Below are positions 3,400 through 63,587 of a stretch of DNA of 64,000 bases, in pieces (position 1 is the stretch's first letter; each line of letters opens with the position of its first letter). The notes beneath the pieces were generated by a model. The model was given only the letters and a program-made list of their open reading frames with translations, searched no databases and was not told where the DNA came from. Source of the DNA: Elusimicrobiota bacterium (GTDB lineage Bacteria > Elusimicrobiota > Elusimicrobia > UBA1565); assembly GCA_041660925.1 (NCBI GenBank), contig JBAZVI010000003.1, forward strand, positions 221,832-285,831, in the 5' to 3' direction. The position numbers and the translations under genes are program-made.

Positions 3400-6300
3400 C
3401 TAGTCGACGACGCTGAAGAGGTCTTCGGGCTGCGCCTGGAGGAGGCCGTCGGCGGCGAGGCGGTCGTACTGCGCGAGGAGGCCGGCGAAGAAGTCCCGGC
3501 CGACGAGGCGGATGTCCATCTTCGGCGCCTTGCCCCGGTACTTGTTGAGCGCGATGAGCCGGGTCGCTTCCTTGAGCGCGTCGGGGCCGGGCGTCACGAC
3601 GTAGGCGTCCCCTTCCCGGCGGACGGAGCTTCCCCCCGCCGCTTTGCGCTTCGCGGGCGCGATCTTGAGCGGCGTCCCGACCAGGGCGAGGATCTCGTCG
3701 GCCGAGTCGACGACCGAGAAGAGCTCCTCGGGGCGGTGCGCGAGCAGGCCCTGCGCGTGGGCCCGTGCATACTGCTCGCTCAAGCCGCGGTAGTACTCCT
3801 TGCCGACGAGGATGATGCGCTTGGGCGCGGCGCCGAGGTCGTTGCCGTCGATGAGCGCCGAGACCTCCTCGAGCGACGAGGCGCCGCCGGGGAACAGGAG
3901 GAAGTGGTCCGAGGCCTTCGCGAACTGCCCGACGCGGGCGCTCTCGGACTCGGCGGTGCCGATGGCGCGGGAGCGGACGATGTCCTCGTCGCCCCAGGTC
4001 GGGATGCGGACGATGGCGAGGTTCTCCCCCGGCACGACGCCCTCGCGCGGCTTCTCCTGGGAGCCGACGGCCGCGGCCTCGAAGGCCGCGCCCATGACGC
4101 CGGCGTTCCCGCAGCCGGAGAGGATGTTGTAGCCGCGGGCGATGAGCTCGGCGGCCACCTTCGCCGCGACGGCCATGGCGGCGAGGATCTTCTCGTCGGT
4201 GCGCGAGCTGCCCAGCACGGTCACGGTCATCGCGCGCGAGGCGTGCGCTGCGTAGCGCTCGTCGAAGGCCGGGATGTCGGCGAAGGTCTTGGGGCGGGGC
4301 GCGTCCACGGAGGGCCTCCAGGCGCCGGTCTTCCAGGCGGCCTTCACGCGGTCGGCGGCGGCCCACCACGCGTCGAGCGATTCCCAGCGGCCGGTCTTCG
4401 CGTCTTTCTCGACGGGGACCGAGAGGGTCTCCACGGCGAAGCGCGGGTCTGCGAGCGAGCCGCCCAGCTCGGCCAGGTCCCAGACGAGCTCCTTCTCTCG
4501 GATGCGGTCCCAAGCCCGCCAGCCGGTCCAGATGTAGGCGCGGTTCTCCATCACGCGCAGGTATTCGTCCGTGTCCGCCGGGCGGCCGAGGATGTCCTTC
4601 GGGCGCTTCGCGATGAGCGCTTTGTTCAGCGGCAGGCGCATCTTCACGAGGGTCAGCGTGCGCGGGGTGGCCCAGGAGATCTGGCGGGTGAGGTAGCTGA
4701 GGGCCGTCTTGGGGTCGAGCGTCGTGAAGATATGGGAGCCGAAGCGGCCCGCTTCGTCGGGCTCGGCGTAGTCGTCGTAGTGCATGTCGCCCATCGTGCC
4801 CGAGGCCTTGGCCGAGTTCAGGCCGCCGCGCAGGCCGCGATAGACCGTCACGTAGGGTTCGCCGTCGACGTATTCGATGCGGGTCGGGGAGAAGGGGAGG
4901 AGGAAGCGGAGGGAGGGGCCGGCGGGCGTCTTGAGAGCGGCCTGTTCGGGCGGCGCGGGTCCGGATCTCGACGCGCCCTTGCGCATCAGAAGGCCGATCG
5001 TGAGCGCGGCGAGCGCGCTGACCGCGACGTTGACGCCGAAGAGGATGGCCGGCATCGTGAGCACGGCGCCCACGGCAGGGAAGAGGCGCGAGGCGCTCAC
5101 GGCCATGAAGATGGGCAGCATCGCGGCGATGCTCGCCGTCATCATCCACTTCGAGAGGTTGCGGTACTTGTCCTGGGGGAGCTTCTCGGAGTAGTAGGTC
5201 ATCCACTTGTTCGAGTTGATGGTGATGAGCCCGCCCAGGAGCCCCGCCAGCGCGAAGGTGAGCATCGGCAGTTGGAGGAAGGTGGACCAGACGAAGGCGG
5301 TCGCCGCGAGCGCGCCGAGCACGGTCCAGCCCTTGCGGCCCAGCGCCTTCTCGGGCAGGAAGGCGAGGGTGGCGAGCAGGCCCGCGAGCCAGCTCCCCCC
5401 GTCGTAGAGTCCGATCATCGTCCCGGCGGCCGAGGGCGCCGAGAACACGCTCAGCGCCAGCACCGTCGCGAGCACGCCGTAGACCATGAAGTGCATGAAG
5501 CGGAAGAAGGCGTAGGGCAGGTACTCCCCCCAGGAGAGCCGGGAGCCTTCCTGCGCCGAAGGCTTCGACTCGGCCCCCTCCTTGGGCGCGGGAGCGGGCT
5601 TCGTCCAGGGCTCCTTGAACTTGAGGGAGGCGTAAAGAGCCGTCGAGAGGCCGATGCCGATGCTCGAGACCACCATCATCGCCGGTCCGCCCAGGAGGTT
5701 GAGCAGCGGCACCGCGGCGAAGAGGGCCATGACGATGCAGGCGACCTCGACCCACTGGTAGGCGTAGTTGAGGCCGAGCTCGAGCTTCGCGGGGTTCTGG
5801 TTGCCGATGATCATGCGCGGAAGGAGGTTCTCGGCGACGCCGCGGTTGACGCCGTAGACGAGGCCGCCGACGATGGAGTTGGCGAGGAAGAGCCCGAACA
5901 TCACGGCGTTCGTCGCTCCGAGCGCCGCGGCGATGGGGATGGGGAGGCCGGAGACGGCGAGCGCGAGGATGGCGGCGACGTTGACCCACTTCGGGTTGAA
6001 GCGGGCCATGAAGGCCGAGCCCATCCAGGCGCCGGCGACGCGCATGACGTAGCCGATGCCCGCGATCATGAGCGCGGCGGGCAGGCCGAAGAGCGATGCG
6101 GTGAACAGCGGCAGGGCCACCGCCTGCACCTCCTGCGCCATCGCGTTGACGGTCCAGGCCGGGACGAACCCGAGGTGGAAGGAGCGCGGCAGCATGCGCA
6201 GGCGGCCGAGGGCGCCCGCGCGCTGGAAGTCGATGCGGTCGACCCAGTCCTCGGCGAGGGTGCGGCCCTCGCTCGAATCGTGGCCGTAGAGTCCGTCCTG

Positions 6301-8295
6301 GACGACGATCCGGCCGTTCTCCGTATCGATCTCGAAGCGCACGCCCTTGAGGAGCTCGTAGAGGCGGTCGCGCGCGGAGGCCTCGTCCTTGCCGCGGACG
6401 GTGATGTTGCCGAGGAGGTCGCCCTCGCCGACCTTGGCGCCCGGCTGGAGGAAGAGCTCGGAGAGGAAGACGGCTCCCCCCTCCTTCGGGAGGCCCTGCA
6501 CGCTCTTGAGCGTGCCGGCGGCCTTCGCGATGAAGAAGCGGTGCTGGAGGAGGACCGGCTCGCCGCGCGGCTCGGGGCGGCTCTCGAGCGAGAAGGCCGC
6601 GAGCAGGCCCTCGCGCATGACGTCCACCCCGTAGGATTCCTTGAGGCTCGCCCAGATGTCGGCGCCGCCCATGCGGGCGTTGATCTCGACGATGGGCGCG
6701 GCGAGCTTCCCGCCCACCAGCGTGAGGATGGCCTCGACGTGCGCGTTGCCGGTCTTGAGGCCGACGGCGTCGAGGGACTTGAGGGCCTGGGCGCGGGCGA
6801 GCTCTTCCATCTCCTTCGGCAGCCGCAGGCCGTAGGTCGTGCCGCGCTCCTGGTTCCCGAGGGCGGGCGGGTTGTAGCTCACGGAGGTGAAGACGGCCTT
6901 GCCTTCGCGCACGACGACCTCGACATCGGTCATGAGCCCGTCGGGGATCTGCGCCTCGAAGAGCACCGGGGGCTTCTCGTCGACCTGCTTGCTGCGGGCC
7001 TTGCGCGGGTCCGTGCGGGCGAGCTCGTCGATCTTCCCCTCGATGTCGCGGAAGGCGGCCTCGGCGGCCTCCGGGCTGTCGATGTCCAGCGTCACGCCCC
7101 AGCCGCCGCCGCCCGAGTCGGGCTTGGCCACGGCCTTCTCGAAGCCGGCGGCCTTGATCTTCTTGAAGGCCTCGCGGGCCTCGGCCGCGCTGTGCGCCTG
7201 GAAGGCGGGCAGGTGGAGGCTCGGGTCGCCGTAGGCGTTCATGAGTTCGCGGGCCCGGATCTTCGAATGCGCGGCGCTCACGGCCTCCGGCGAGAAGCCG
7301 GGGACCCCGAGCCCCTCGGCCAGTTCGGCCTCGAGCTGGGCGTAGGCGTTGAGGTAGGTCTTCACCGCGTCGATGCGGCGGGTCTTCGCGATGCCCTTCG
7401 CCTGCTCCACGATCGCGCGCAGGTTGTCGGCGGAGTGGCCGCCGACGTCGGCGGAGTAGTAGTTGCCGGGGAGGATCCCCTTCGAGACGGCGAAGTCCTT
7501 CTGGTCCGGGTAGCCGAGGACGAGGAGCTCGAAGCCGAGCTCTTTCGAGAGCGCCGCCATGTGCTCGTAGAGGTAGTCGCGGCCGCCGACCTTGGAGACG
7601 ACGTAGAGCAAGGATTTCCCCGCGAGCGGCTTGTCCGCGGGCAAGGCCGGGGACAGCGAGGAGCGCTTCCGCCCGTTCGTGCCCGAGACATCGAGGACAG
7701 GCTCTTCGGTGGAGCCTGTCCTTCCGCGGCCTTCGAAGAGAAGTCCGGTCGCCGCGCGGGTCTTCTCCGTCCCCGCGCCGGGCTCGGCGAGGGTCTCGGA
7801 GACCTCGGTCTGGCCGGTCTTCGTCGTTTCAAGGACGGAGACCGGAGCCTTCTTGTCGGAGGAGGCCTTGGCGGGAAGGATCGCGTCCTTCGCCGGGAGC
7901 GGGAGGGACTTCGATGCTTCGGCTGCCGGGATGATCGCGGCGTTCGCGGCCGGGGTCTTGAGGGTCGCAGCGGCCGCGGCGCTCTGGACCGTCGGCTGGA
8001 CGGAGGGCGGGGTCGGGAGGGCGAGCCCGTTGGTGAGCGGCGCGATGTTCGGAGCCGCGAGCGGTGCGAGCTGGACCGACGGCGCGACCGCGGTCGGTAC
8101 GACGGGGGTCCCCGCGGTCGTCGCCGATTGGGCGGAGCTGGCCGCGGCCTGACAGAACGCCTCCCCTGATAAGGAAAGGACCAGGCAGGCCGAGAGGAGC
8201 GCGGCGAAGCCCTTCTTCAGTTCACGCACGATATGAAGGATAGCCCCCCGCCCGGATTCCAGCAAGGGGTCGAAGGGGCAGGGAGCATGGGCCAT
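3400..8295 (-). CDS. Giant multidomain fusion protein: N-terminal hydrophobic segment + Ala/Pro/Thr-rich linker, ATP-grasp ligase domain, 12-TM MFS transporter domain, unknown domain (about 250 aa), LOG-family (TIGR00730-like) domain, partially duplicated LOG C-terminal segment
   Basis: A single uninterrupted 1631-codon frame. ATP-grasp motifs AVAKPDSGGGGWGVTL and EINARMGGA. Long hydrophobic block with MFS-like helices. LOG motifs VTVLGSSR, GCGNAGVMGA and PGGASSLEEV. The opposite-strand 1477-aa and 892-aa ORFs are compositional junk. Confidence 0.6.
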   Translation of the reverse strand: MAHAPCPFDPLLESGRGAILHIVRELKKGFAALLSACLVLSLSGEAFCQAAASSAQSATTAGTPVVPTAVAPSVQLAPLAAPNIAPLTNGLALPTPPSVQPTVQSAAAAATLKTPAANAAIIPAAEASKSLPLPAKDAILPAKASSDKKAPVSVLETTKTGQTEVSETLAEPGAGTEKTRAATGLLFEGRGRTGSTEEPVLDVSGTNGRKRSSLSPALPADKPLAGKSLLYVVSKVGGRDYLYEHMAALSKELGFELLVLGYPDQKDFAVSKGILPGNYYSADVGGHSADNLRAIVEQAKGIAKTRRIDAVKTYLNAYAQLEAELAEGLGVPGFSPEAVSAAHSKIRARELMNAYGDPSLHLPAFQAHSAAEAREAFKKIKAAGFEKAVAKPDSGGGGWGVTLDIDSPEAAEAAFRDIEGKIDELARTDPRKARSKQVDEKPPVLFEAQIPDGLMTDVEVVVREGKAVFTSVSYNPPALGNQERGTTYGLRLPKEMEELARAQALKSLDAVGLKTGNAHVEAILTLVGGKLAAPIVEINARMGGADIWASLKESYGVDVMREGLLAAFSLESRPEPRGEPVLLQHRFFIAKAAGTLKSVQGLPKEGGAVFLSELFLQPGAKVGEGDLLGNITVRGKDEASARDRLYELLKGVRFEIDTENGRIVVQDGLYGHDSSEGRTLAEDWVDRIDFQRAGALGRLRMLPRSFHLGFVPAWTVNAMAQEVQAVALPLFTASLFGLPAALMIAGIGYVMRVAGAWMGSAFMARFNPKWVNVAAILALAVSGLPIPIAAALGATNAVMFGLFLANSIVGGLVYGVNRGVAENLLPRMIIGNQNPAKLELGLNYAYQWVEVACIVMALFAAVPLLNLLGGPAMMVVSSIGIGLSTALYASLKFKEPWTKPAPAPKEGAESKPSAQEGSRLSWGEYLPYAFFRFMHFMVYGVLATVLALSVFSAPSAAGTMIGLYDGGSWLAGLLATLAFLPEKALGRKGWTVLGALAATAFVWSTFLQLPMLTFALAGLLGGLITINSNKWMTYYSEKLPQDKYRNLSKWMMTASIAAMLPIFMAVSASRLFPAVGAVLTMPAILFGVNVAVSALAALTIGLLMRKGASRSGPAPPEQAALKTPAGPSLRFLLPFSPTRIEYVDGEPYVTVYRGLRGGLNSAKASGTMGDMHYDDYAEPDEAGRFGSHIFTTLDPKTALSYLTRQISWATPRTLTLVKMRLPLNKALIAKRPKDILGRPADTDEYLRVMENRAYIWTGWRAWDRIREKELVWDLAELGGSLADPRFAVETLSVPVEKDAKTGRWESLDAWWAAADRVKAAWKTGAWRPSVDAPRPKTFADIPAFDERYAAHASRAMTVTVLGSSRTDEKILAAMAVAAKVAAELIARGYNILSGCGNAGVMGAAFEAAAVGSQEKPREGVVPGENLAIVRIPTWGDEDIVRSRAIGTAESESARVGQFAKASDHFLLFPGGASSLEEVSALIDGNDLGAAPKRIILVGKEYYRGLSEQYARAHAQGLLAHRPEELFSVVDSADEILALVGTPLKIAPAKRKAAGGSSVRREGDAYVVTPGPDALKEATRLIALNKYRGKAPKMDIRLVGRDFFAGLLAQYDRLAADGLLQAQPEDLFSVVD

Positions 8296-8780: not shown

Positions 8781-8781
<1 letters not shown>
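8371..8781 (-). CDS. Single-domain response regulator (CheY-like receiver, 136 aa)
   Basis: C-terminal 136 aa of ORF 8371..10209 read MGWFFGKKKGQRTVLVADDD..LILLDVNMPQLTG..KPF (receiver D-D-K signature); the rest of that ORF is R-rich junk. ATG overlaps the OPT gene stop (ATGA). Confidence 0.8.
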
Positions 8782-10718
<1,937 letters not shown>

Positions 10719-10730
10719 GTCGGTCTCCCC

Positions 10731-10759
10731 GTCGGGAATCCTTGACGGGGATTCCCGAC
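10731..10759. repeat. Palindromic element GTCGGGAATCC-ttgacgg-GGATTCCCGAC (11-bp perfect arms); second copy at 47021..47048
   Basis: Read directly from the sequence; it sits 13 nt upstream of the OPT start codon and downstream of the receiver gene stop. Confidence 0.7.
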
Positions 10760-10839
10760 CTGTCTACAAAAGTTGTTTCCGGCGCCTGGAATGACTTGCT
10801 GAAACCGTCCTGCGAAACGCCGCTGCGTTTCGCAGGCTA

Positions 10840-11244
10840 TTATACACCGTCTCCCTTCCTCTCCGGCGGCGCCGTGAGCAGCTCGCGGATGCGGCCGAGG
10901 AGCTGCTCGGGCGTGAAGGGCTTGGAGATCCACGCGTCCCCGCCCGCGCTGACGCTCTCCTTGAAGGACTCCTCGGGGTTCATGGCGGTCATGAAGAGCA
11001 CCGGGGTCGTCCGCGTCTCCGCGCGCTCGCGCAGTTGCCGGCAGACCTCGAAGCCGCTGATGCCGGGCAGGAGGATGTCGAGGAGGATGAGGGCCGGGCG
11101 CAGCGCGACGGCGCGCTCGAGGGTGTCCTCCCCGTAGGCGAGGGGCTGGACGCGGTAGTCGTTCTTCAGGGTCCCCGCGAGGGCCTCGCGGATCCCCAGG
11201 TCGTCGTCGATGACGAGGATGAGGGGGCGGATGTCGTCGTTCAT
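10840..11244 (-). CDS. Single-domain response regulator (CheY-like receiver, 134 aa)
   Basis: C-terminal part of ORF 10840..13134 reads MNDDIRPLILVIDDD..LILLDILLPGISG..SKPF; ATG overlaps the stop of the radical SAM gene (ATGA). Confidence 0.8.
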   Translation of the reverse strand: MNDDIRPLILVIDDDLGIREALAGTLKNDYRVQPLAYGEDTLERAVALRPALILLDILLPGISGFEVCRQLRERAETRTTPVLFMTAMNPEESFKESVSAGGDAWISKPFTPEQLLGRIRELLTAPPERKGDGV

Positions 11245-13028
11245 GCGGCCTCCTTCCCCGCGCGGACGCGGGGTCTGAGCACGCGCCGGTAGCGCGTTTT
11301 GACGGCGTTGGACGGCGAGAGGAACTGGTCGGAGCCGAAGGGCTTGAAGCGGCGGGTCGCCAGGCGCACGAGGCGCGAGATGACGCCCTTGCGCGCGTGG
11401 CCGAAGACGGAGTAGAGGAACATCAGGAGCTCGATGTGGACGCTGTCCACCTCGAGGGTCGGCTGGATGCGCTCGAGCGTCTCGGTGACCGCGCGCGTCG
11501 AGTCCATGATCTGGCGGTCCTTCGCCTCCCAGGAGAGCCCCCCCACCTCGTCGAAGCGCTCGGAGTAGGCGCTGACGAACTCGTCGGCGGAGAACGGGTC
11601 GAGGGCGCCGGCCGGCGCCGGACGCAGGGACACGCCGAAGCGCCCCGGGGTGCGGTAGAGCGGCGAGCCGGGGTAGAGGTAGAAAGGGTTGAGAGAGTGC
11701 ACGTCGATGCAGTCGCGGTGCTCCTCGAGGAAGCGCACGGTGTCCGCGACGTCCGCGGGGGTCTCCGTGGGCAGGCCGCCGATGATCTCGATGTGGTTCC
11801 AGATCCCCAGCGCGTGGGAGCGGCGCAGGAAGCGCGAGGCGCGCTCGGGGGTCGTCCCCTTGCGGATGTAGCGCAGCAGGCGCGCGCTGCCCGTCTCGAG
11901 CCCGAAGGTCAGCTTCACCGCGCCCGATTCCCGCATCTTCTCGAGGAGGCGTTCGTCGAGCTGGCGGAAGTTCACGCAGTCGCACCACTGCAGGCCGAGC
12001 CGCGCGCGGACCATGCGCCCGCAGAGCTCGAGGGCGAAGTCGTAGTGGTTGTTGAAGTTCGCGTTGATGAAGTAGACGCCGGTGGCGCCCTGGTCCTTGA
12101 GCGCGCGCAGGTGCTCGACGACCTCGGCCGGGGTGCGGCGGTCGCTGCGGGTCTGGCTCGAGCAGAAGATGCACTGCCCCGCGCAGTGGGACTCGAAGCG
12201 GCTCATGAGCACGAGCTGCTCCCTGCCCCCGTGCTCGGCGAGGAGGCGGCGGAAGGCGGGGCCGGAGGCGTTGTAGCTCGCCAGGATGCGCCGCCCCGTG
12301 CGCCGGTAGAGCTCGAGCGGGTAGCCGCGGTAGTCGGGGAAGGTCAGCGGCGGATAGTGGCCCTGCATGACGCCCTTGAGGACGCGGCCCGAGGACGTAC
12401 GGCGGTAGACGTTGAAGGGCAGGCGGCGCTCGCGCTCGACGACGGCGTGCGCGAGCTGCTCGAGCTCGCGCTCTCCCTGGATGACGACGGCGTAGTCGAA
12501 GCAGGGATAGTCGCGCAGGATCTCGTAGTAGAGCTGCTTGGAGACGTCCTTGTGCCCGATGACGACCGGCTTGCCCGTGCGCCGGCGGATCTCGTCGGCG
12601 AGGAGCGCGGCCGCGTTGAGCAGGAACGGCGTCTTGAGGTCGGCCAGGGTGAGGCCGTAGAGGTCGGCCTCGGGAAGGGCGTCGCAGAGCGGCGCGAGGG
12701 CCGCGGCGGCCGCCTCGAGGGAACGGGCGCCCTTTCCCTTGAGCTTCCCGGAGAGCCACCGGGCGACCGCGTGCGGGTCGCGCAGCAGCGAGAAGTCGGT
12801 CCAGGGGTGCGCCGGCTTCACCTTGAGATGGAAGGGCACGTCGAAGTCGTGGAGCGTCGTGTCGATGCGCTTGCGGCGCAGGTGGGCCGCCAGCGTCGGG
12901 ATCGAGATGTTCGGGACGGGGAAGCACTCGTTGTTGCGCGTCTCGGCCGGCGGGACGATGAGCGCGACTCTCGCCCTGCGCGGGCGGTCCGCGGACGCTT
13001 TCTCCCGCGCCGGGCGACCGTGTGCCAT
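11241..13028 (-). CDS. B12-binding-domain radical SAM protein (595 aa)
   Basis: N-terminal B12-binding-like region (RVALIVPP..) followed by the CxxxCxxC radical SAM cluster motif (CAGQCIFCS) and a TIM-barrel-like remainder. Confidence 0.8.
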   Translation of the reverse strand: MAHGRPAREKASADRPRRARVALIVPPAETRNNECFPVPNISIPTLAAHLRRKRIDTTLHDFDVPFHLKVKPAHPWTDFSLLRDPHAVARWLSGKLKGKGARSLEAAAAALAPLCDALPEADLYGLTLADLKTPFLLNAAALLADEIRRRTGKPVVIGHKDVSKQLYYEILRDYPCFDYAVVIQGERELEQLAHAVVERERRLPFNVYRRTSSGRVLKGVMQGHYPPLTFPDYRGYPLELYRRTGRRILASYNASGPAFRRLLAEHGGREQLVLMSRFESHCAGQCIFCSSQTRSDRRTPAEVVEHLRALKDQGATGVYFINANFNNHYDFALELCGRMVRARLGLQWCDCVNFRQLDERLLEKMRESGAVKLTFGLETGSARLLRYIRKGTTPERASRFLRRSHALGIWNHIEIIGGLPTETPADVADTVRFLEEHRDCIDVHSLNPFYLYPGSPLYRTPGRFGVSLRPAPAGALDPFSADEFVSAYSERFDEVGGLSWEAKDRQIMDSTRAVTETLERIQPTLEVDSVHIELLMFLYSVFGHARKGVISRLVRLATRRFKPFGSDQFLSPSNAVKTRYRRVLRPRVRAGKEAA

Positions 13029-13261: not shown

Positions 13262-14038
13262 CTAATGAGTATAGAAATGAGATTCGGATCCCTCTCCTAA
13301 CACACAGCCGACGCCCACATACCTCTTGCGTGCCAATTCAATTGGAGAAGTTTGCAGAGCAACATTATCTCGAGAGATGCCTCCCAGGAGCAGTGTCGCC
13401 TCATTAATCATGTTGGCGGGAATCGTGAATGTCAGGTCAAACCGAGTCCAGGGCTCGACGACAGTTGACGACACATTGAGGATGTATGTCCCATCGTTCG
13501 ATGGGGAGCAATCGGCGTTCACCCCGACAGAAGAGCCATCACCGAAGCAGGAAGCTTTGACGGATGCAGGCGCTAGAAGTCGTTCCCTGTTGATCCGTAG
13601 ACGTATCTCCTGTGGCCGCACTTTGAATTGGACGAGCGGTTTGTTTTTCCAGTAAGGCCAGTTGGTCTGCCGGAAGTCTAATGATACTTGCAGGTGTTCG
13701 TCAGAAATATCCCAATTCTTTCGATTCTTGATTGCCGAGTAGATTCCCAGGGGGTTTGGTATCAGGGCAAGCGGAAGCATGATGCATGGCCCGACGGATA
13801 GGATACTCTCGGTCACGCGTGGGTTCGCATAGACATAGAGCGGCGGATCTGTGAGCCTGACAAGAGGGCCCCATTCCTTCGGCTGGCCCTCCTTGTTTAT
13901 GTGGGAGGGGTCTGCAACCACCAAACCCTTTGAATAAGTCACATAGGCGCACGAGTTGAGGCACAAGCATGCGGCCGCGACGAGCACTGCTGACGATTTC
14001 TTGTGGATTAGCATGTAAGGTAGCAGCAATTTTGACAA
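13262..14038 (-). CDS. Hypothetical lipoprotein (lipobox LNSC) encoded in a low-GC island
   Basis: Signal peptide plus Cys lipobox; protein-like composition; local GC is far below the window average. An alternative start is at the M 8 codons downstream of the ORF start. Confidence 0.5.
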   Translation of the reverse strand: MSKLLLPYMLIHKKSSAVLVAAACLCLNSCAYVTYSKGLVVADPSHINKEGQPKEWGPLVRLTDPPLYVYANPRVTESILSVGPCIMLPLALIPNPLGIYSAIKNRKNWDISDEHLQVSLDFRQTNWPYWKNKPLVQFKVRPQEIRLRINRERLLAPASVKASCFGDGSSVGVNADCSPSNDGTYILNVSSTVVEPWTRFDLTFTIPANMINEATLLLGGISRDNVALQTSPIELARKRYVGVGCVLGEGSESHFYTH

Positions 14039-14089
14039 ATTTTGCCTGCGAAGCTATGTGCATGGTCGTATCATAAGTTCTAAAGGTTT

Positions 14090-14122
14090 GGGGGCAGGTT
14101 CGCATGCTGCGAACCTGCCCCC
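14090..14122. repeat. Perfect 15-bp stem / 3-nt loop hairpin GGGGGCAGGTTCGCA-tgc-TGCGAACCTGCCCCC
   Basis: Read directly from the sequence; no adjacent T-tract, so it is not a classic intrinsic terminator. Confidence 0.7.
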
Positions 14123-14184
14123 AGCGTCCCCGCCCCCCACCCGCCGCACCGCTTCCCGGCAGTTATAGCGGTCCCAGAAATGTC

Positions 14185-14220
14185 CGAGGGCGGGCTCGCA
14201 TCATCGCGAGCCCGCCCTCG
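14185..14220. repeat. Perfect 15-bp stem / 6-nt loop hairpin CGAGGGCGGGCTCGC-atcatc-GCGAGCCCGCCCTCG
   Basis: Read directly from the sequence; it is the second strong hairpin in the 240-bp spacer between the lipoprotein gene and glnN. Confidence 0.7.
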
Positions 14221-14260
14221 TATTAAGAACTCCTCTGCCGGGAACAGCTTATCTTCCCGA

Positions 14261-14283
14261 GCAGAATCCCGAAGGGATTCTGC
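14261..14283 (-). terminator. Hairpin GCAGAATCCC-gaa-GGGATTCTGC abutting the glnN stop codon (possible terminator or 3' stabiliser)
   Basis: 10-bp perfect inverted repeat whose last bases overlap the glnN TAG; there is no T-tract, so its function is uncertain. Confidence 0.4.
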
Positions 14284-16439
14284 TACAGGAGGTTGAGCAT
14301 GTCCCGGTACTTGGGCAGCGGCCAGTAGCGGTGCTCGACGGCCTGCTCGGTGCGGTCGCAGGCCGAGCGCATCTCCGAGAGGGTCTCGACGCCCGCGCCG
14401 GCGAAGACCTTCGCGCGCTGGACCATGTCGGTCTCGGCGCCGGCCTTCTCGAGGACCTTCTCCGCGCCGTCGGCGCCCGCGTAGAGCTCGGCGAGCAGCC
14501 CGCCGAACTCCGCGAGCTTCGCCTTGAGCTCCTTGCCGCCCTTCGCGGACTCCAGGCGCCCGGCCGCCGAGCCGTAGAGGTCGATCTGGCGCACGAGCGC
14601 GGGCGCGATGTCGGTGACGATGAGCTCGCGGAGCTGGCGCAGCTCGATCTCCTTGAGCTTCACGTAGGCCTCGAGCTTGATCTCGTGCTTAGCCTCGAGC
14701 TCGTGCTTCGAGAGGACCTTGTAGCGCTCGTAGAGCTCGACGACGGCCTTCTCGACGAAGGTCTCGAGCGCGTCCGGGGTGTTCTTGGCGTTGGGCAGGC
14801 CGCGGCGCGCCGCCTCCCTGTGCCACTCCTCGGAGTAGCCGTTGCCCTCGAAGCGGATGCGCTTGGTCTCCTTGACCAGCTCGCGCACGACGTCGAGCGC
14901 GCGCTTCGTGAAGTCCTCGTCGCCGGCGTGCTTCTCGAGCTTCTCCAGCACGCGGTCGAGACCGTCGGCGACCGCCAGGCAGAGGGCCGTGGCCGGCTCC
15001 GCGATGCTCTGCGAGGAGCCGACGGCGCGGAACTCGAACTTGTTGCCGGTGAAGGCCAGCGGCGAGGTGCGGTTGCGGTCGGAGTTGTCGAGCACGATGC
15101 TCGGCAGGCTCTTGAGGCCGTGCCCGATGGCCTCGCGCGAGGCGTCCTTGGACAGAGAGCCCTTCTCGATGTCGGTGAGGAGGCGGTCGAGGTACTCTCC
15201 GAGGTAGACGGACATGATGGCCGGCGGAGCCTCGTTGGCCCCGAGCCGGTGGTCGTTGCCCGCGTCGGCGACGGCCGCGCGCAGGAGCCCCCCGTACTTG
15301 TTCACGCCGGCGAGGAAGGCGGCCAGGTAGACGAGGAACTGGATGTTCTTCTTGGGGGCCGCGCCGGGCTCGAGGAGGTTCTGCCCCTCGCTATCCGCCA
15401 TCGACCAGTTCAGGTGCTTGCCGCTGCCGTTGATGCCCGAGAAGGGCTTCTCGTGTAGGAGCAGGGCGAAGCCGTGGTCGTCGGCCGTCTTGCGCATGAT
15501 CTCCATGAGCTGGAGGTTGTGGTCGATGGCCAGGTTCGCGGTCTCGAAGATCGGCGCGAGCTCGAACTGGTTGGGCGCGACCTCGTTGTGGCGCGTCTTG
15601 GCCGGGATGCCGCGCTCGAAGAGCGCGCGGTCGAGGTCCGTCATGAACTCGAGGACCTTGGGCTGGATGGAGCCGAAGTAGTGGTCCTCGAGCTGCTGCT
15701 GCTTGGCGGAGGCGGCGCCGAAGAGCGTGCGGCCCGCGTAGACGAGGTCCGGGCGCCGGCGGTAGAACTCCTTGCGCACGAGGAAGTACTCCTGCTCGGG
15801 TCCGATGGTCACGCGCACGTTGCGCGCGGTGCGGTTGCCGAAGAGCTTGAGGAGCTTGAAGGCGCGCTCCTCGACGACGCGCACGGCGCGCAGGAGCGGG
15901 GTCTTCATGTCGAGCGTCTCTCCGGTCCAGGAGAGATAGACCGAGGGGATGACGAGGGTCGCGCCCTTCCCGTCGCTGTTCTTAAGGAGGAAGGCCGGGG
16001 AGGTCGGGTCCCACGCGGTGTAGCCGCGGGCCTCGAAGGTCGAGCGCATGCCGCCCGAGGGGAAGGAGGAGGCGTCGGGCTCGCTCTGGATGAGCTGGCG
16101 GCCGGAGAAGCGGTCGATGGGCTGGCCGGTCTCGTCGAAGCTCAGGAAGGAGTCGTGCTTCTCGGCGGTGACGCCCCGCTGCGGCTGGAACCAGTGGCAG
16201 AAATGGGTCGCGCCCTGTGAGATGGCCCACTCCTTCATGGCGTGGGCGACCTCGTCGGCGATCTCGACCTCGAGCTTCTCGTCGTTCTCGATGACGTCGA
16301 GGATCTGCTGATAGGTGGCCTTGCTCAGGTTCCGGGCCATCGCCTTCTTGTCGAAGGTCAGGGCGCCGTAGTCCGCGAAGAGGCCTTTCGATTCTTTCAC
16401 CAGGTTGACTCCGTTTTGCGAGATTTGCGCGCTCGGCAT
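14283..16439 (-). CDS. glnN: Glutamine synthetase type III
   Basis: Its length and N-terminal sequence resemble Bacteroides GlnN (MPSAQISQ..HFCHWFQPQRGVTAEKHDSF..QSEPDASSFPSGGMRSTFEARGYTAWDP). The ORF begins at a TTG 11 codons upstream; the ATG at 16439 was chosen as the start. Confidence 0.9.
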   Translation of the reverse strand: MPSAQISQNGVNLVKESKGLFADYGALTFDKKAMARNLSKATYQQILDVIENDEKLEVEIADEVAHAMKEWAISQGATHFCHWFQPQRGVTAEKHDSFLSFDETGQPIDRFSGRQLIQSEPDASSFPSGGMRSTFEARGYTAWDPTSPAFLLKNSDGKGATLVIPSVYLSWTGETLDMKTPLLRAVRVVEERAFKLLKLFGNRTARNVRVTIGPEQEYFLVRKEFYRRRPDLVYAGRTLFGAASAKQQQLEDHYFGSIQPKVLEFMTDLDRALFERGIPAKTRHNEVAPNQFELAPIFETANLAIDHNLQLMEIMRKTADDHGFALLLHEKPFSGINGSGKHLNWSMADSEGQNLLEPGAAPKKNIQFLVYLAAFLAGVNKYGGLLRAAVADAGNDHRLGANEAPPAIMSVYLGEYLDRLLTDIEKGSLSKDASREAIGHGLKSLPSIVLDNSDRNRTSPLAFTGNKFEFRAVGSSQSIAEPATALCLAVADGLDRVLEKLEKHAGDEDFTKRALDVVRELVKETKRIRFEGNGYSEEWHREAARRGLPNAKNTPDALETFVEKAVVELYERYKVLSKHELEAKHEIKLEAYVKLKEIELRQLRELIVTDIAPALVRQIDLYGSAAGRLESAKGGKELKAKLAEFGGLLAELYAGADGAEKVLEKAGAETDMVQRAKVFAGAGVETLSEMRSACDRTEQAVEHRYWPLPKYRDMLNLL

Positions 16440-46078: not shown

Positions 46079-46668
46079 CGGGCCGTCTTCCTCCGGCGCG
46101 CGCAGAGGGCCCGGCGCAGCAGCGAGCGCACGCTCGCGAGCGGCAGGCCGACGACGTTGTCGAACGGGCCCACGATGCGCTCGATGAAGGGGTCCCCGTG
46201 GTCCTGCACGGCATAGGCGCCGGCCTTGTCCATGTGGCGGCCCACGAAGCGCTCGAGCTCCTCGGCCGTTAGGCGGCGGGCCTTGACCCGGGTCACGGCC
46301 GCCTCGCGCCACCAGCGGCCCGACTCGGAGTCGACGAGCGCGACCCCGGTGTAGACGCGGTGCCAGCGGCCGTTGAGCGAGCGGAGGATGCGGCGGCCGT
46401 CCTCGCGGTCGATCGGCTTGTTGAGGACCTCTCCGCGGCAGACGACGATGGTGTCCGCCCCGAGGACGAGCGCGCGCTTTCGCCGCCCGGCCACGGCCCG
46501 CGCCTTGCGCAGGGCGAGCTCGAGCACGAGCCGGCGCGGCGTGCAGGGAGCGACCTCCTCGCTGACGTGCGAGGGGGCGATGCGGAAAGGGAGCTTGAGG
46601 GCGCGCAGGAGCTCGCGCCGGCGCGGGGACGCCGAGGCCAGGACCAGCGTGCGCGCAAGGGCGCTCAT
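46075..46668 (-). CDS. maf: Maf-like nucleoside triphosphate pyrophosphatase
   Basis: LASASPRRRELL signature; start overlaps the cutA stop. Confidence 0.8.
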   Translation of the reverse strand: MSALARTLVLASASPRRRELLRALKLPFRIAPSHVSEEVAPCTPRRLVLELALRKARAVAGRRKRALVLGADTIVVCRGEVLNKPIDREDGRRILRSLNGRWHRVYTGVALVDSESGRWWREAAVTRVKARRLTAEELERFVGRHMDKAGAYAVQDHGDPFIERIVGPFDNVVGLPLASVRSLLRRALCARRRKTAR

Positions 46669-46994
46669 CGGGGCCTCGCGTCCGCGGCGGCGTCGAGCCA
46701 GGAGAGATAGGAGGGACTTCCCCCCGCCACGGGCAGCGCGAGGACCTCGGGCACGGAACAGGGGTGAAGCGCCTTCACGCGGCGCTGGAGGCGCGGGAGC
46801 AGGGCCGCGCGGGTCTTGGCGAGGAGCAGGACTTCGGAGGCCTCCTCGACCTTCCCCTTCCAGCGGTAGACGGAGCGCAGGCTTCCGACGAGGTTCACGC
46901 ACGCCGCCAGGCGCTCGGCGACCAGGGCGCGGGCCAGGCGCAGGCCGGTCCGGCGGTCGGGGGCGGTGACGAGGACCACGCAGCGTTTCGGCAT
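46665..46994 (-). CDS. cutA: Divalent-cation tolerance protein CutA
   Basis: 109 aa, MPKRCVVLVTAP..VKALHPCSVPEVLALPV typical of CutA1. Confidence 0.8.
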   Translation of the reverse strand: MPKRCVVLVTAPDRRTGLRLARALVAERLAACVNLVGSLRSVYRWKGKVEEASEVLLLAKTRAALLPRLQRRVKALHPCSVPEVLALPVAGGSPSYLSWLDAAADARPR

Positions 46995-47020
46995 CGGCGC
47001 ATGATACCAATTCCTGCGTG

Positions 47021-47048
47021 GTCGGGAATCCCCGTTGGGGATTCCCGA
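47021..47048. repeat. Second copy of the palindromic element GTCGGGAATCCCC-gtt-GGGGATTCCCGA
   Basis: Identical arms to the element at 10731..10759; located in the divergent spacer between cutA and the 47074 gene. Confidence 0.7.
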
Positions 47049-47073
47049 TGAACTTGGTAACATTACGCGCGTA

Positions 47074-47670
47074 ATGGGAGAGGAGCTCGAGTCCCTGCGG
47101 AAGGAAGACCTGGTGTCGGCGTTGAACTCCACCCAGCAGCGGGTGCGAGAGCTCGAAGACGCGCTCGGCCGCTTCAAGGACGAGGTGCGCTGGCTCGAGG
47201 ACTGCCTGAAGAAGCGCACGCGCGAGCTCAACGAGCGGGTCAAAGAGCTCGACTGCCTCTTCGGCGTAGCCCGGCTCGTCGAGAAGCCCGGTGCGACGCT
47301 CGACGAGATCCTCTCCGAGGTCGTCGCGATGCTCCCCCGCGCCTGGCAGTACCCCGACGCCGCCTGCGCGCGCGTACGCCTGCGGGGGCGCGAGCACCGC
47401 TCTCCCGGCTTCCAGAAGACTTCCTGGGTGCAGACCTCCGAGTTCCGCGTCCAGGGCCGAGCCGTCTGCGCGGTCGACGTGTTCTATACCCGCGTCCTGC
47501 CGAAGGCGGACGAAGGTCCGTTCCTGCTGGAGGAGCGCAAGCTCCTCGACGAGGTCGCGCGCCGCGTCGGAGAGATCGTCGCGATCAAGGACGCCGAGGA
47601 CGACATCTCCGGCTTCCTGCGCCAGGTCTCCCGCCTGCGCTCTCCGAAGCCCCCCCCTTCCGGCTCATGA
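47074..47670 (+). CDS. Hypothetical coiled-coil / GAF-like sensor-domain protein
   Basis: Protein-like composition; start placed at MGEELESLRK (internal ATG at 47074). Confidence 0.45.
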   Translation: MGEELESLRKEDLVSALNSTQQRVRELEDALGRFKDEVRWLEDCLKKRTRELNERVKELDCLFGVARLVEKPGATLDEILSEVVAMLPRAWQYPDAACARVRLRGREHRSPGFQKTSWVQTSEFRVQGRAVCAVDVFYTRVLPKADEGPFLLEERKLLDEVARRVGEIVAIKDAEDDISGFLRQVSRLRSPKPPPSGS

Positions 47671-62654: not shown

Positions 62655-63587
62655 TCAGACCTCGGAGGGGTCGTGTTCGCGGTGCGACTGCACGGTGTGG
62701 CGGTGGTGAGCGATGGGCATGCCGTTGCGCCGCCAGTAGCTGCGGATGGCCCCCCAGGCCTCTTCGGCGGTGTCCACGGTCTGCACGAGGTCCAGGTCTC
62801 CGGGCGAGATGACGCCCTGCTCGGAGAGGTACTTCACGTCGATGACCCGCGACCAGAACTCCCGCCCGACGAGGATGACGGGGAGCTGGGACTTCTTGCT
62901 CGTCTGCACGAGGGTCAGAGTCTCGAAGAGCTCGTCGAAGGTCCCGAAGCCGCCGGGGAACGCGACCATCGCCTTCGCGCGCATGAGGAAGTGCATCTTG
63001 CGGATGGCGAAATAGTGGAACAGGAAGGAGAGCTCGGGCGTGACGAAGGGGTTGGGCTCCTGCTCGTGCGGGAGGGTGATGTTGAGCCCGATGCTCTTCC
63101 CCCCCGCCTCCCACGCTCCGCGGTTGGCCGCTTCCATGATGCCGGGGCCTCCCCCGGTGACCATGACGAAGTGGCGGCGTCCCTTCCCCTGGGAGGCCTT
63201 CGTGACGATGTAGCTGAAGCGTCGGGCCTCGTCATAATAGCGGGAGAGCTTCTGCAGGCGCTTGGCCGCGTCGAGCTCCGTGCGCAGGCGCGCATCGCGG
63301 GGCAGGCGCTTGAGCGCCGCGCCCAGCTTCGCGATCTGGGCCTCCGCTTCGTCGGGAGGCTGGATGCGCGCGCTGCCGAAGACGATGATGGTGGACTCGA
63401 TCTTGTTCTCGATGAGGACCATCTCGGGCTTGAGCAGCTCGAGCTGCAGGCGCATGGGGCGCAGCTCCTCGCGGGCGAGGAAGTCGATGTCCTGATAGGC
63501 CTTCCGGTAGGTGCGGGAGGCTCGGAGATCGTCGAGCATCTTGCGGCGCTGCTGGGGGGTGATCTTCACGGCTTTCATGTCGTCCAT
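62655..63587 (-). CDS. LOG-family protein (TIGR00730, cytokinin riboside 5'-monophosphate phosphoribohydrolase / PpnN-like nucleotide nucleosidase)
   Basis: GGGPGIMEA and PGGFGTFDEL motifs; 310 aa. Confidence 0.8.
   Translation of the reverse strand: MDDMKAVKITPQQRRKMLDDLRASRTYRKAYQDIDFLAREELRPMRLQLELLKPEMVLIENKIESTIIVFGSARIQPPDEAEAQIAKLGAALKRLPRDARLRTELDAAKRLQKLSRYYDEARRFSYIVTKASQGKGRRHFVMVTGGGPGIMEAANRGAWEAGGKSIGLNITLPHEQEPNPFVTPELSFLFHYFAIRKMHFLMRAKAMVAFPGGFGTFDELFETLTLVQTSKKSQLPVILVGREFWSRVIDVKYLSEQGVISPGDLDLVQTVDTAEEAWGAIRSYWRRNGMPIAHHRHTVQSHREHDPSEV

Follow-up and report, generated by a model that had tools for sequence, protein, structure and literature searches.

The palindrome at positions 10731–10759 is probably a copy of a small dispersed REP-like hairpin repeat, specific to a high-GC (~70%) lineage of Elusimicrobiota, and not a regulator site. 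"The window" denotes the whole stretch of 64,000 nucleotides analysed here. The sequence-only reading had offered two candidates for the palindrome, an operator for a dimeric regulator and a lineage-specific REP-like element. The second is supported by near-identical copies in a related high-GC Elusimicrobiota population, by the 3' ends between convergent genes at which they lie, by dimers with a conserved spacer, and by one filled site with an empty orthologous counterpart. The palindrome is most likely an ordinary kind of element that is new to Elusimicrobiota.

Palindromes in the window

Three related hairpins are present in the window, which has a GC content of ~70% (70.6%).

10731–10759: site 1 palindrome, GTCGGGAATCC-TTGACGG-GGATTCCCGAC, arms perfect over 11 bp
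47021–47049, plus strand: site 2 palindrome, solo, GTCGGGAATCC-CCGTTGG-GGATTCCCGAT, with GTGG immediately before it on the plus strand
14260–14284, minus strand: third (variant) hairpin, AGCAGAATCCC-TTC-GGGATTCTGCT (on the plus strand AGCAGAATCCC-GAA-GGGATTCTGCT), partner 1 of the dimer W3

The "forward" orientation of site 1 (loop CCCCGTCAAGG) is on the minus strand, and site 1 is partner 1 of the dimer W1. The earlier claim that the palindrome occurs twice was confirmed; the copies at 10731–10759 and 47021–47049 are identical at 26 of 29 positions. The two copies had been described with identical 11-bp arms and with the second ending at 47048. The arms of site 1 are indeed perfect, but the right arm of site 2 matches at 10 of 11 positions (its final base is T, not C), and this palindrome runs to 47049. 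The stem of site 2 extends inward as TCGGGAATCCCC-GTT-GGGGATTCCCGA, with 12 perfect pairs and a GTT loop. A related hairpin is present at the glnN stop, as had been noted; its position is 14260–14284, and it does not abut the TAG stop codon but shares two bases with it. The preceding GTAG includes that TAG.

The pattern GGAATCC-N(1-12)-GGATTCC has two matches in the window against 0.01 expected by chance, and GAATCC-N-GGATTC has three against 0.03 expected. Lone 11-mer arms with at most two mismatches number 30, against 31.5 expected. Lone arms are thus at chance level, and only the palindromes stand out. The repetition of the palindrome is non-random. Among all perfect hairpins of at least 9 bp in the window, about 15 further intergenic ones were found, every one unique in sequence, and the three GAATCC-type hairpins are the sole sequence-repeated ones. 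As RNA, the palindrome hairpins are predicted at about −17 to −24 kcal/mol (−18.7 to −23.6 kcal/mol in the folding run). Their stems of 11–13 bp and units of 25–29 nt fall within the size range of REPs (20–50 nt, 6–13-bp stem).

Genes at the window sites

The genes that flank the sites are as follows.

8781–10718, minus strand: OPT-family oligopeptide transporter gene, flanking site 1, outside the element
10840–11244, minus strand: CheY-like receiver-only response regulator gene, at whose stop W1 begins, outside the element
11241–13028, minus strand: radical-SAM gene, at the head of the radical-SAM/receiver/OPT gene string
46665–46994, minus strand: cutA gene (ATG at 46994), flanking site 2, outside the element
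47074–47670, plus strand: gene of a 198-aa hypothetical protein, flanking site 2, outside the element; product and start are the same in the NCBI annotation

Site 1 lies just upstream of the OPT gene, as had been noted. Its nearest base is 12 nt away from the OPT ATG (10718–10716, minus strand), and the arm adjoins the Shine–Dalgarno sequence GGGGAG. The window OPT protein is 100% identical to MFA6029409.1, and NCBI assigns the source to an Elusimicrobiota MAG. The dimer W1 lies between same-direction genes and fills nearly the whole 121-nt gap from the receiver TAA to the OPT ATG. The divergent spacer that contains site 2 is 79 nt long, and the palindrome is separated from the cutA ATG (46994) by 26 nt and from the other ATG (47074) by 24 nt. 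Thus both window copies are next to gene starts, as the sequence-only reading had stated, but this is not a property of the family. Site 2 is the only copy in a divergent spacer, a minority location for REPs and a classic place of an operator.

As an operator, the palindrome would bind a dimeric transcription factor for OPT, for the divergent cutA and 198-aa genes, and perhaps for more nitrogen- or peptide-related genes. The half-sites are perfectly inverted over 10–11 bp with N7 at both window sites; site 2 is central in its spacer, and site 1 is just upstream of the Shine–Dalgarno sequence. However, no DNA-binding regulator is encoded beside either site. A promoter role of the loop was also considered and rejected. 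TTGAC as a −35 element is out of register between the copies and has no acceptable −10 partner; the arrangement TTGACG-17-TACAAA at site 1 faces away from OPT, and its site 2 counterpart TTGGGG is 3 nt out of register. A scan for the sigma-70-like promoter consensus gave no matches at the sites.

Several other features were observed around these genes. In the divergent spacer (46995–47073), −10-like hexamers are located 6–10 nt from both ATGs (TGGTATCAT for cutA and TAACAT for the 198-aa gene) and there is no clear Shine–Dalgarno sequence; the mRNAs of both genes may be leaderless. The 198-aa protein has no Pfam domain of its own; its homologues are longer proteins bearing GerE (LuxR-type HTH) or GAF domains, in which it corresponds to the N-terminal part. 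In the relative L235 (4804–5454), Maf is located between a histidine-kinase-like gene and cutA; the window has ~350 nt of room there (46313–46664), and Maf may have been shortened or lost. The only matches of the 1631-aa ORF at 3400–8295 (minus strand) are a LOG/"lysine decarboxylase" domain at the C-terminus and, weakly, L-amino-acid-ligase C2; a further LOG-family gene is present at 62655–63587.

The gene glnN encodes a type III glutamine synthetase. Past the third hairpin, two more strong hairpins (14185–14220 and 14089–14123) are followed by a low-GC lipoprotein-like ORF of 258 aa (13262–14038, minus strand). This ORF, located between glnN and the radical-SAM gene and downstream of the three successive strong hairpins, has a lipoprotein-like signal peptide (..LNSC..) but no Pfam match, and its GC content is only 52% (window, 70.6%). 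It looks like a horizontally acquired insert.

Copies in other contigs

A metagenome scan with the query TCGGGAATCC-N3-11-GGATTCCCGA gave 103 loci, most of them from repeat families unrelated to this one, of which one is low in GC and one is of Gaiellales type. Three contigs with a GC content of ~0.70 from sample Ga0172379 (L126, L157 and L170) match the window copies with the loop included. These three short contigs hold four to five outside copies. The window and outside copies are aligned below.

Site 1, minus strand: GTCGGGAATCCCCGTCAAGGATTCCCGAC
Site 2, plus strand: GTCGGGAATCCCCGTTGGGGATTCCCGAT
L157, plus strand: GTCGGGAATCCCCGTTGAGGATTCCCGAC
L170, minus strand: GTCGGGAATCC-TGACAAGGATTCCCGAC
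L126: ATCGGGAATCCCCTGCCGGGGATTCCCGAT

The L157 copy is identical to site 2 at 27 of 28 positions and to site 1 at 27 of 29. Counting the loops, copies are 90–96% identical across contigs, and the palindromes of the window are members of one family with them. The unit consensus is GTCGGGAATCC-CCGTYRR-GGATTCCCGAC, with a 10–13-bp stem and variable loop length. Because its CoaD protein shows 84–96% identity to Elusimicrobiota proteins, L157 is assigned to Elusimicrobiota.

The hairpins of L126, L157 and L170 are located between convergent Pfam-supported genes (YCII, GNAT, BioY, DUF350), 0–14 nt from the stops. In L126 the TGA of the YCII gene overlaps an arm, in L170 the BioY gene terminates within the hairpin loop, and in L157 an arm adjoins the TAG of the DUF350 gene. 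W1 and W3 also lie at 3' ends, as is usual for REPs, with site 2 as the exception. For an operator, the outside copies are thus misplaced, since they sit on stop codons between convergent genes and not at promoters. The gap between the 10-nt arms also varies, with 6 nt in L170, 7 nt at site 1, site 2 and L157, and 8 nt in L126. The loops are conserved, and not the arms alone; the sharing of loops along with arms indicates common descent and not selection on half-sites alone.

The scan of a genome collection with CGGGAATCC-N3-11-GGATTCCCG gave at least 120 matches. Among the matches listed, most are chance terminators from many phyla, together with an unrelated Gaiellales repeat family. One palindrome, GCCGGGAATCC-TAG-GGATTCCCGGC, was found in an uncultured Elusimicrobia MAG (L035, CAYHRV010000020.1, 2686–2706), with an AT-rich stretch on one side and, on the other, the GGAGG/ATG of a PFOR gamma-like gene. 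Its place ahead of a gene start would suit an operator; it is a single match and could be of chance origin. Among the matched loci (L001–L120 and L121–L223), several unrelated repeat families of distant taxa have the CGGGAATCC...GGATTCCCG core in common, as the search was designed to find it. These are the low-GC family (caatatttgggattTCGGGAATCC-NNN-GGATTCCCGAaatccc), the Gaiellales-type family (gcgcgaTCGGGAATCCGC-N4-GCGGATTCCCGAtcgcgc) and a TTCCCGCGAAAG-CGGGAATCCA type in Proteobacteria and Nitrospira MAGs.

The two-hairpin module

The unit occurs either solo (site 2) or as half of a BIME/REPIN-like heterodimer (site 1 and the glnN 3' end). In W1, W3, L157 and L170, the hairpin is followed by ~10 nt, the box AAGYTGTTYCCGGCG(Y)C(Y)GGRAT, and then a second, different hairpin, ~105–130 nt in total; the hairpin-box-hairpin order is that of REP dimers. 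The spacer box AAGYTGTTYCCGGC is on the same relative side of the hairpin in all four. The parts in the window are as follows.

10760–10808, plus strand: W1 spacer, box AAGTTGTTTCCGGC at 10770–10783; the similarity runs to ~10793
10809–10836: W1 partner hairpin 2, CCTGCGAAACGC-CGCT-GCGTTTCGCAGG, −20.7 kcal/mol
14237–14250, minus strand: W3 spacer box AAGCTGTTCCCGGC, identical to the L170 box
14185–14220: W3 partner hairpin 2, CGAGGGCGGGCTCGC-N6-GCGAGCCCGCCCTCG, −35.7 kcal/mol

On the minus strand, W1 hairpin 2 is preceded by TAG (10839–10837), which comes right after the receiver TAA (10842–10840). The modules occupy gaps between genes, where they touch or overlap the stop codons and sometimes provide TAG. 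W3 and L170 carry an exact box, and in W1 and L157 it deviates at two positions. Allowing two mismatches, it has two matches in the window against 0.61 expected, and both adjoin GAATCC-type hairpins. The spacers of L157 and L170 are identical at 31 of 35 positions. When only the outside contigs L157 and L170 are used to build a family profile, it matches W1 (10731–10792) with E=9.5e-10, site 2 with E=7e-4 and W3 with E=7e-3. That the hairpin belongs to a longer repeated module is a further point against an operator.

Other roles of the box were rejected. As a structured sRNA, CCGGCG/CGCCGG pairs in L170, and not in W1 or L157. As a sigma-54 promoter, the GG-to-GC spacing is 8 nt and not 10 (by eye). 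A scan of viral contigs with the palindrome gave no matches; 50 viral-contig matches to a box 16-mer matched the box alone according to the family profile, and were treated as chance.

Orthologous sites in relatives

One orthologous site, between a HEAT-repeat gene and a DUF350 gene, is filled in L157 and empty in L232, a relative of lower GC content from the same sample. Only 3 nt separate the two stops in L232 (..TTTTAGCGCCTAGCG..), whereas in L157 ~127 nt of module occupy the interval. This pair indicates insertion. The direction of the difference would follow from the presence of the same module at unrelated loci; in the outgroups L290 and L292 the gene order differs.

Relatives of the window loci also lack the element. 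No such hairpin was found in the upstream regions of four OPT orthologues (78–87% aa identity). In L235 the syntenic spacer between cutA and a 194-aa gene lacks the element and gives no match to the family profile, and ~138 kb from nine relatives (GC 0.60–0.70) contain zero copies. An operator would be expected at these promoters. With the variable arm spacing and with most outside copies off promoters, the absence at the OPT orthologues and in the cutA spacer makes the operator that the sequence-only reading had proposed highly improbable.

The compact module of ~105–130 nt with hairpin-forming ends may also be compared with a MITE, that is, a non-autonomous derivative of a DDE-transposase insertion sequence which inserts at TA/CTAG and is not handled by a RAYT. 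The L157 insert lies between ..CGCTAG and CTACCG.., and the empty site has a single CTAG, which resembles a 3–4-bp target duplication. However, no matching duplication is present around W1, W3 and L170, and the module ends are different hairpins and not mutual terminal inverted repeats. A solo hairpin exists (site 2), and the window has no transposase gene. According to these results, a MITE is very unlikely.

RNA structure of the hairpins

Fold z-scores from −3.2 to −7.7 mark the stems as very stable, G-U pairs extend them on one strand, and copies lie at 3' ends. These features would fit immobile RNA elements selected at each locus, namely U-tract-less terminators or 3' stabilisers and a gate in the OPT 5'-UTR, with their likeness arising by gene conversion or convergence. 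In the OPT leader, the MFE fold joins CCCCGUC, from the arm and loop, to GACGGGG, from the arm end and the Shine–Dalgarno region, at −29.8 kcal/mol against −20.3 kcal/mol for the plain hairpin; GGUCG also pairs with CGACC before the AUG. By the folding model, this structure could reduce OPT translation. We provisionally regard it as a by-product of where the element landed.

On the other hand, no sequence is shared among the other hairpins at terminator positions in the window, and a structural role by itself therefore does not call for the palindrome sequence. An identity of 90–96% at unrelated loci, including the loops and a 35-nt spacer, points to copying. The hairpin is not kept at orthologous loci, it has no U-tract, and it matches no Rfam family. 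Terminator scans gave nothing at any site (the post-stem sequences are ctgtctac, gaacttgg and acaggagg). With Rfam 15, no matches were found in the window at the gathering thresholds; with E up to 5, the region around site 1 again gave none, and that around glnN gave only miRNA or frameshift-element matches attributable to chance. Thus, RNA elements selected locus by locus are unlikely.

Proposed spread and meaning of the repeat

Under the REP-like reading, a trans-acting enzyme would act on copies in the form of folded single-stranded DNA, and these would spread by insertion. By analogy with the known family, the model for this enzyme would be a RAYT/TnpA(REP)-type tyrosine HuH enzyme. Inserted copies may be co-transcribed with neighbour genes and form stable RNA stem-loops, which could serve as 3'-end barriers. 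The site 1 element could lower OPT translation through the alternative fold of the leader. The adjacency to two gene starts would be incidental.

REPs typically have many dispersed copies per genome, usually more than 100, and a cognate RAYT/TnpA(REP) gene (Pfam Y1_Tnp) that is often flanked by REPs. The window holds two copies and one variant in its 64 kb; classical REPs number in hundreds. By Pfam, no Y1/RAYT or other transposase was detected among the ~55 window proteins. Since a RAYT is usually single-copy, its absence in the window says little. The bases before the hairpin are GTAG at W3, L157 and hairpin 1 of L170, GTGG at site 2, CAGG/CCCG at site 1, and CTGA/TCTA at L126. GTAG, where present, could be just a stop codon. 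A more elaborate version would make the family the first REP/BIME-type (REPIN-like) system in Elusimicrobiota, with boxed heterodimers that fill gaps and donate stops, at least one copy co-opted (at OPT in the radical-SAM/receiver/OPT string, where the alternative fold of element and flank would hide the Shine–Dalgarno sequence and gate translation), and a mobiliser that, given the inconsistent GTAG tag, might not be a classical RAYT; we consider this whole combination rather unlikely.

If the palindrome is a REP-like repeat, it is a false regulatory lead, and it should not define a regulon of OPT, cutA and glnN. A candidate REP/BIME-like family is added for a poorly studied, uncultured phylum in which none was previously described. 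A full-text literature search found no paper linking Elusimicrobia with REPs, and a full-text search for the sequence motifs returned primers only. Such repeats serve as strain markers and give rise to assembly breaks in MAGs; in addition, they can alter C-termini and stop codons, or affect the expression of neighbour genes. If a cognate enzyme were found, the family would widen the range of hosts known for REP systems.

Comparison with known systems

Like intrinsic (Rho-independent) terminators, the hairpins are stable GC-rich stem-loops, and several copies are directly past a stop. Unlike such terminators, they have no U-tract, are palindromic on both strands and are repeated at the sequence level, and two copies are just upstream of gene starts.

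A second REP-like pair was observed in a lower-GC Elusimicrobiota relative (Ga0376277). A CGTC-tagged inverted pair, CGTCATTCCGGCGAAAGCCGGAATCCAGG...CCCCGGCTTTCGCCGGGGTGACG, is located in its orthologous cutA spacer (L235, 5870–5935); a half-copy (the same 30-mer) is directly past the OPT stop codon of that organism (L227, 11951–11980). The linker of the pair, GCAAGCTGGACCCCGGC, is similar to the window family's box. Both kinds of repeat occupy the same kind of positions, the orthologous cutA spacer included, and the CGTC-tagged pair contains GGAATCC and a box-like spacer motif, CAAGCTGG-CCCCGGC. It differs in its stem (TTCCGGC-GAAA-GCCGGAA) and its tag (CGTC), and the family profile gives no match.

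GTAG- and CGTC-tagged palindromic repeats were described by Di Nocera et al. (2013; PMC3733652), and the REPtron model is given in PMC8266576. According to these two papers, REPs have 6–13-bp stems and form dimers 20–100 bp apart, with conserved spacers in head-to-head dimers. Their distance from the 3' end of a convergent or same-direction ORF is at most 20 bp, and the GTAG tag often provides a TAG stop (PMC3733652; PMC8266576). Elusimicrobiota as a REP-carrying phylum has zero mentions in PMC3733652 and PMC8266576. Unlike in REPs and BIMEs, the tag of the window family varies (GTAG, GTGG, CAGG), the G of GTCGGG is paired and not part of an unpaired tag, and a RAYT is missing from the window proteins. 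Like them, the window family is an extragenic palindrome of 25–30 nt with a 10–13-bp stem, which occurs solo or as an inverted heterodimer, 20–100 bp apart, with a conserved spacer. Its copies are 0–20 nt from 3' ends, and the GTAG before several of them yields a TAG stop. Its insertion pattern is also that of REPs, as L157 is filled where L232 is empty and the OPT and cutA relatives are without a copy; the family is lineage-specific, as REP/BIME families are.
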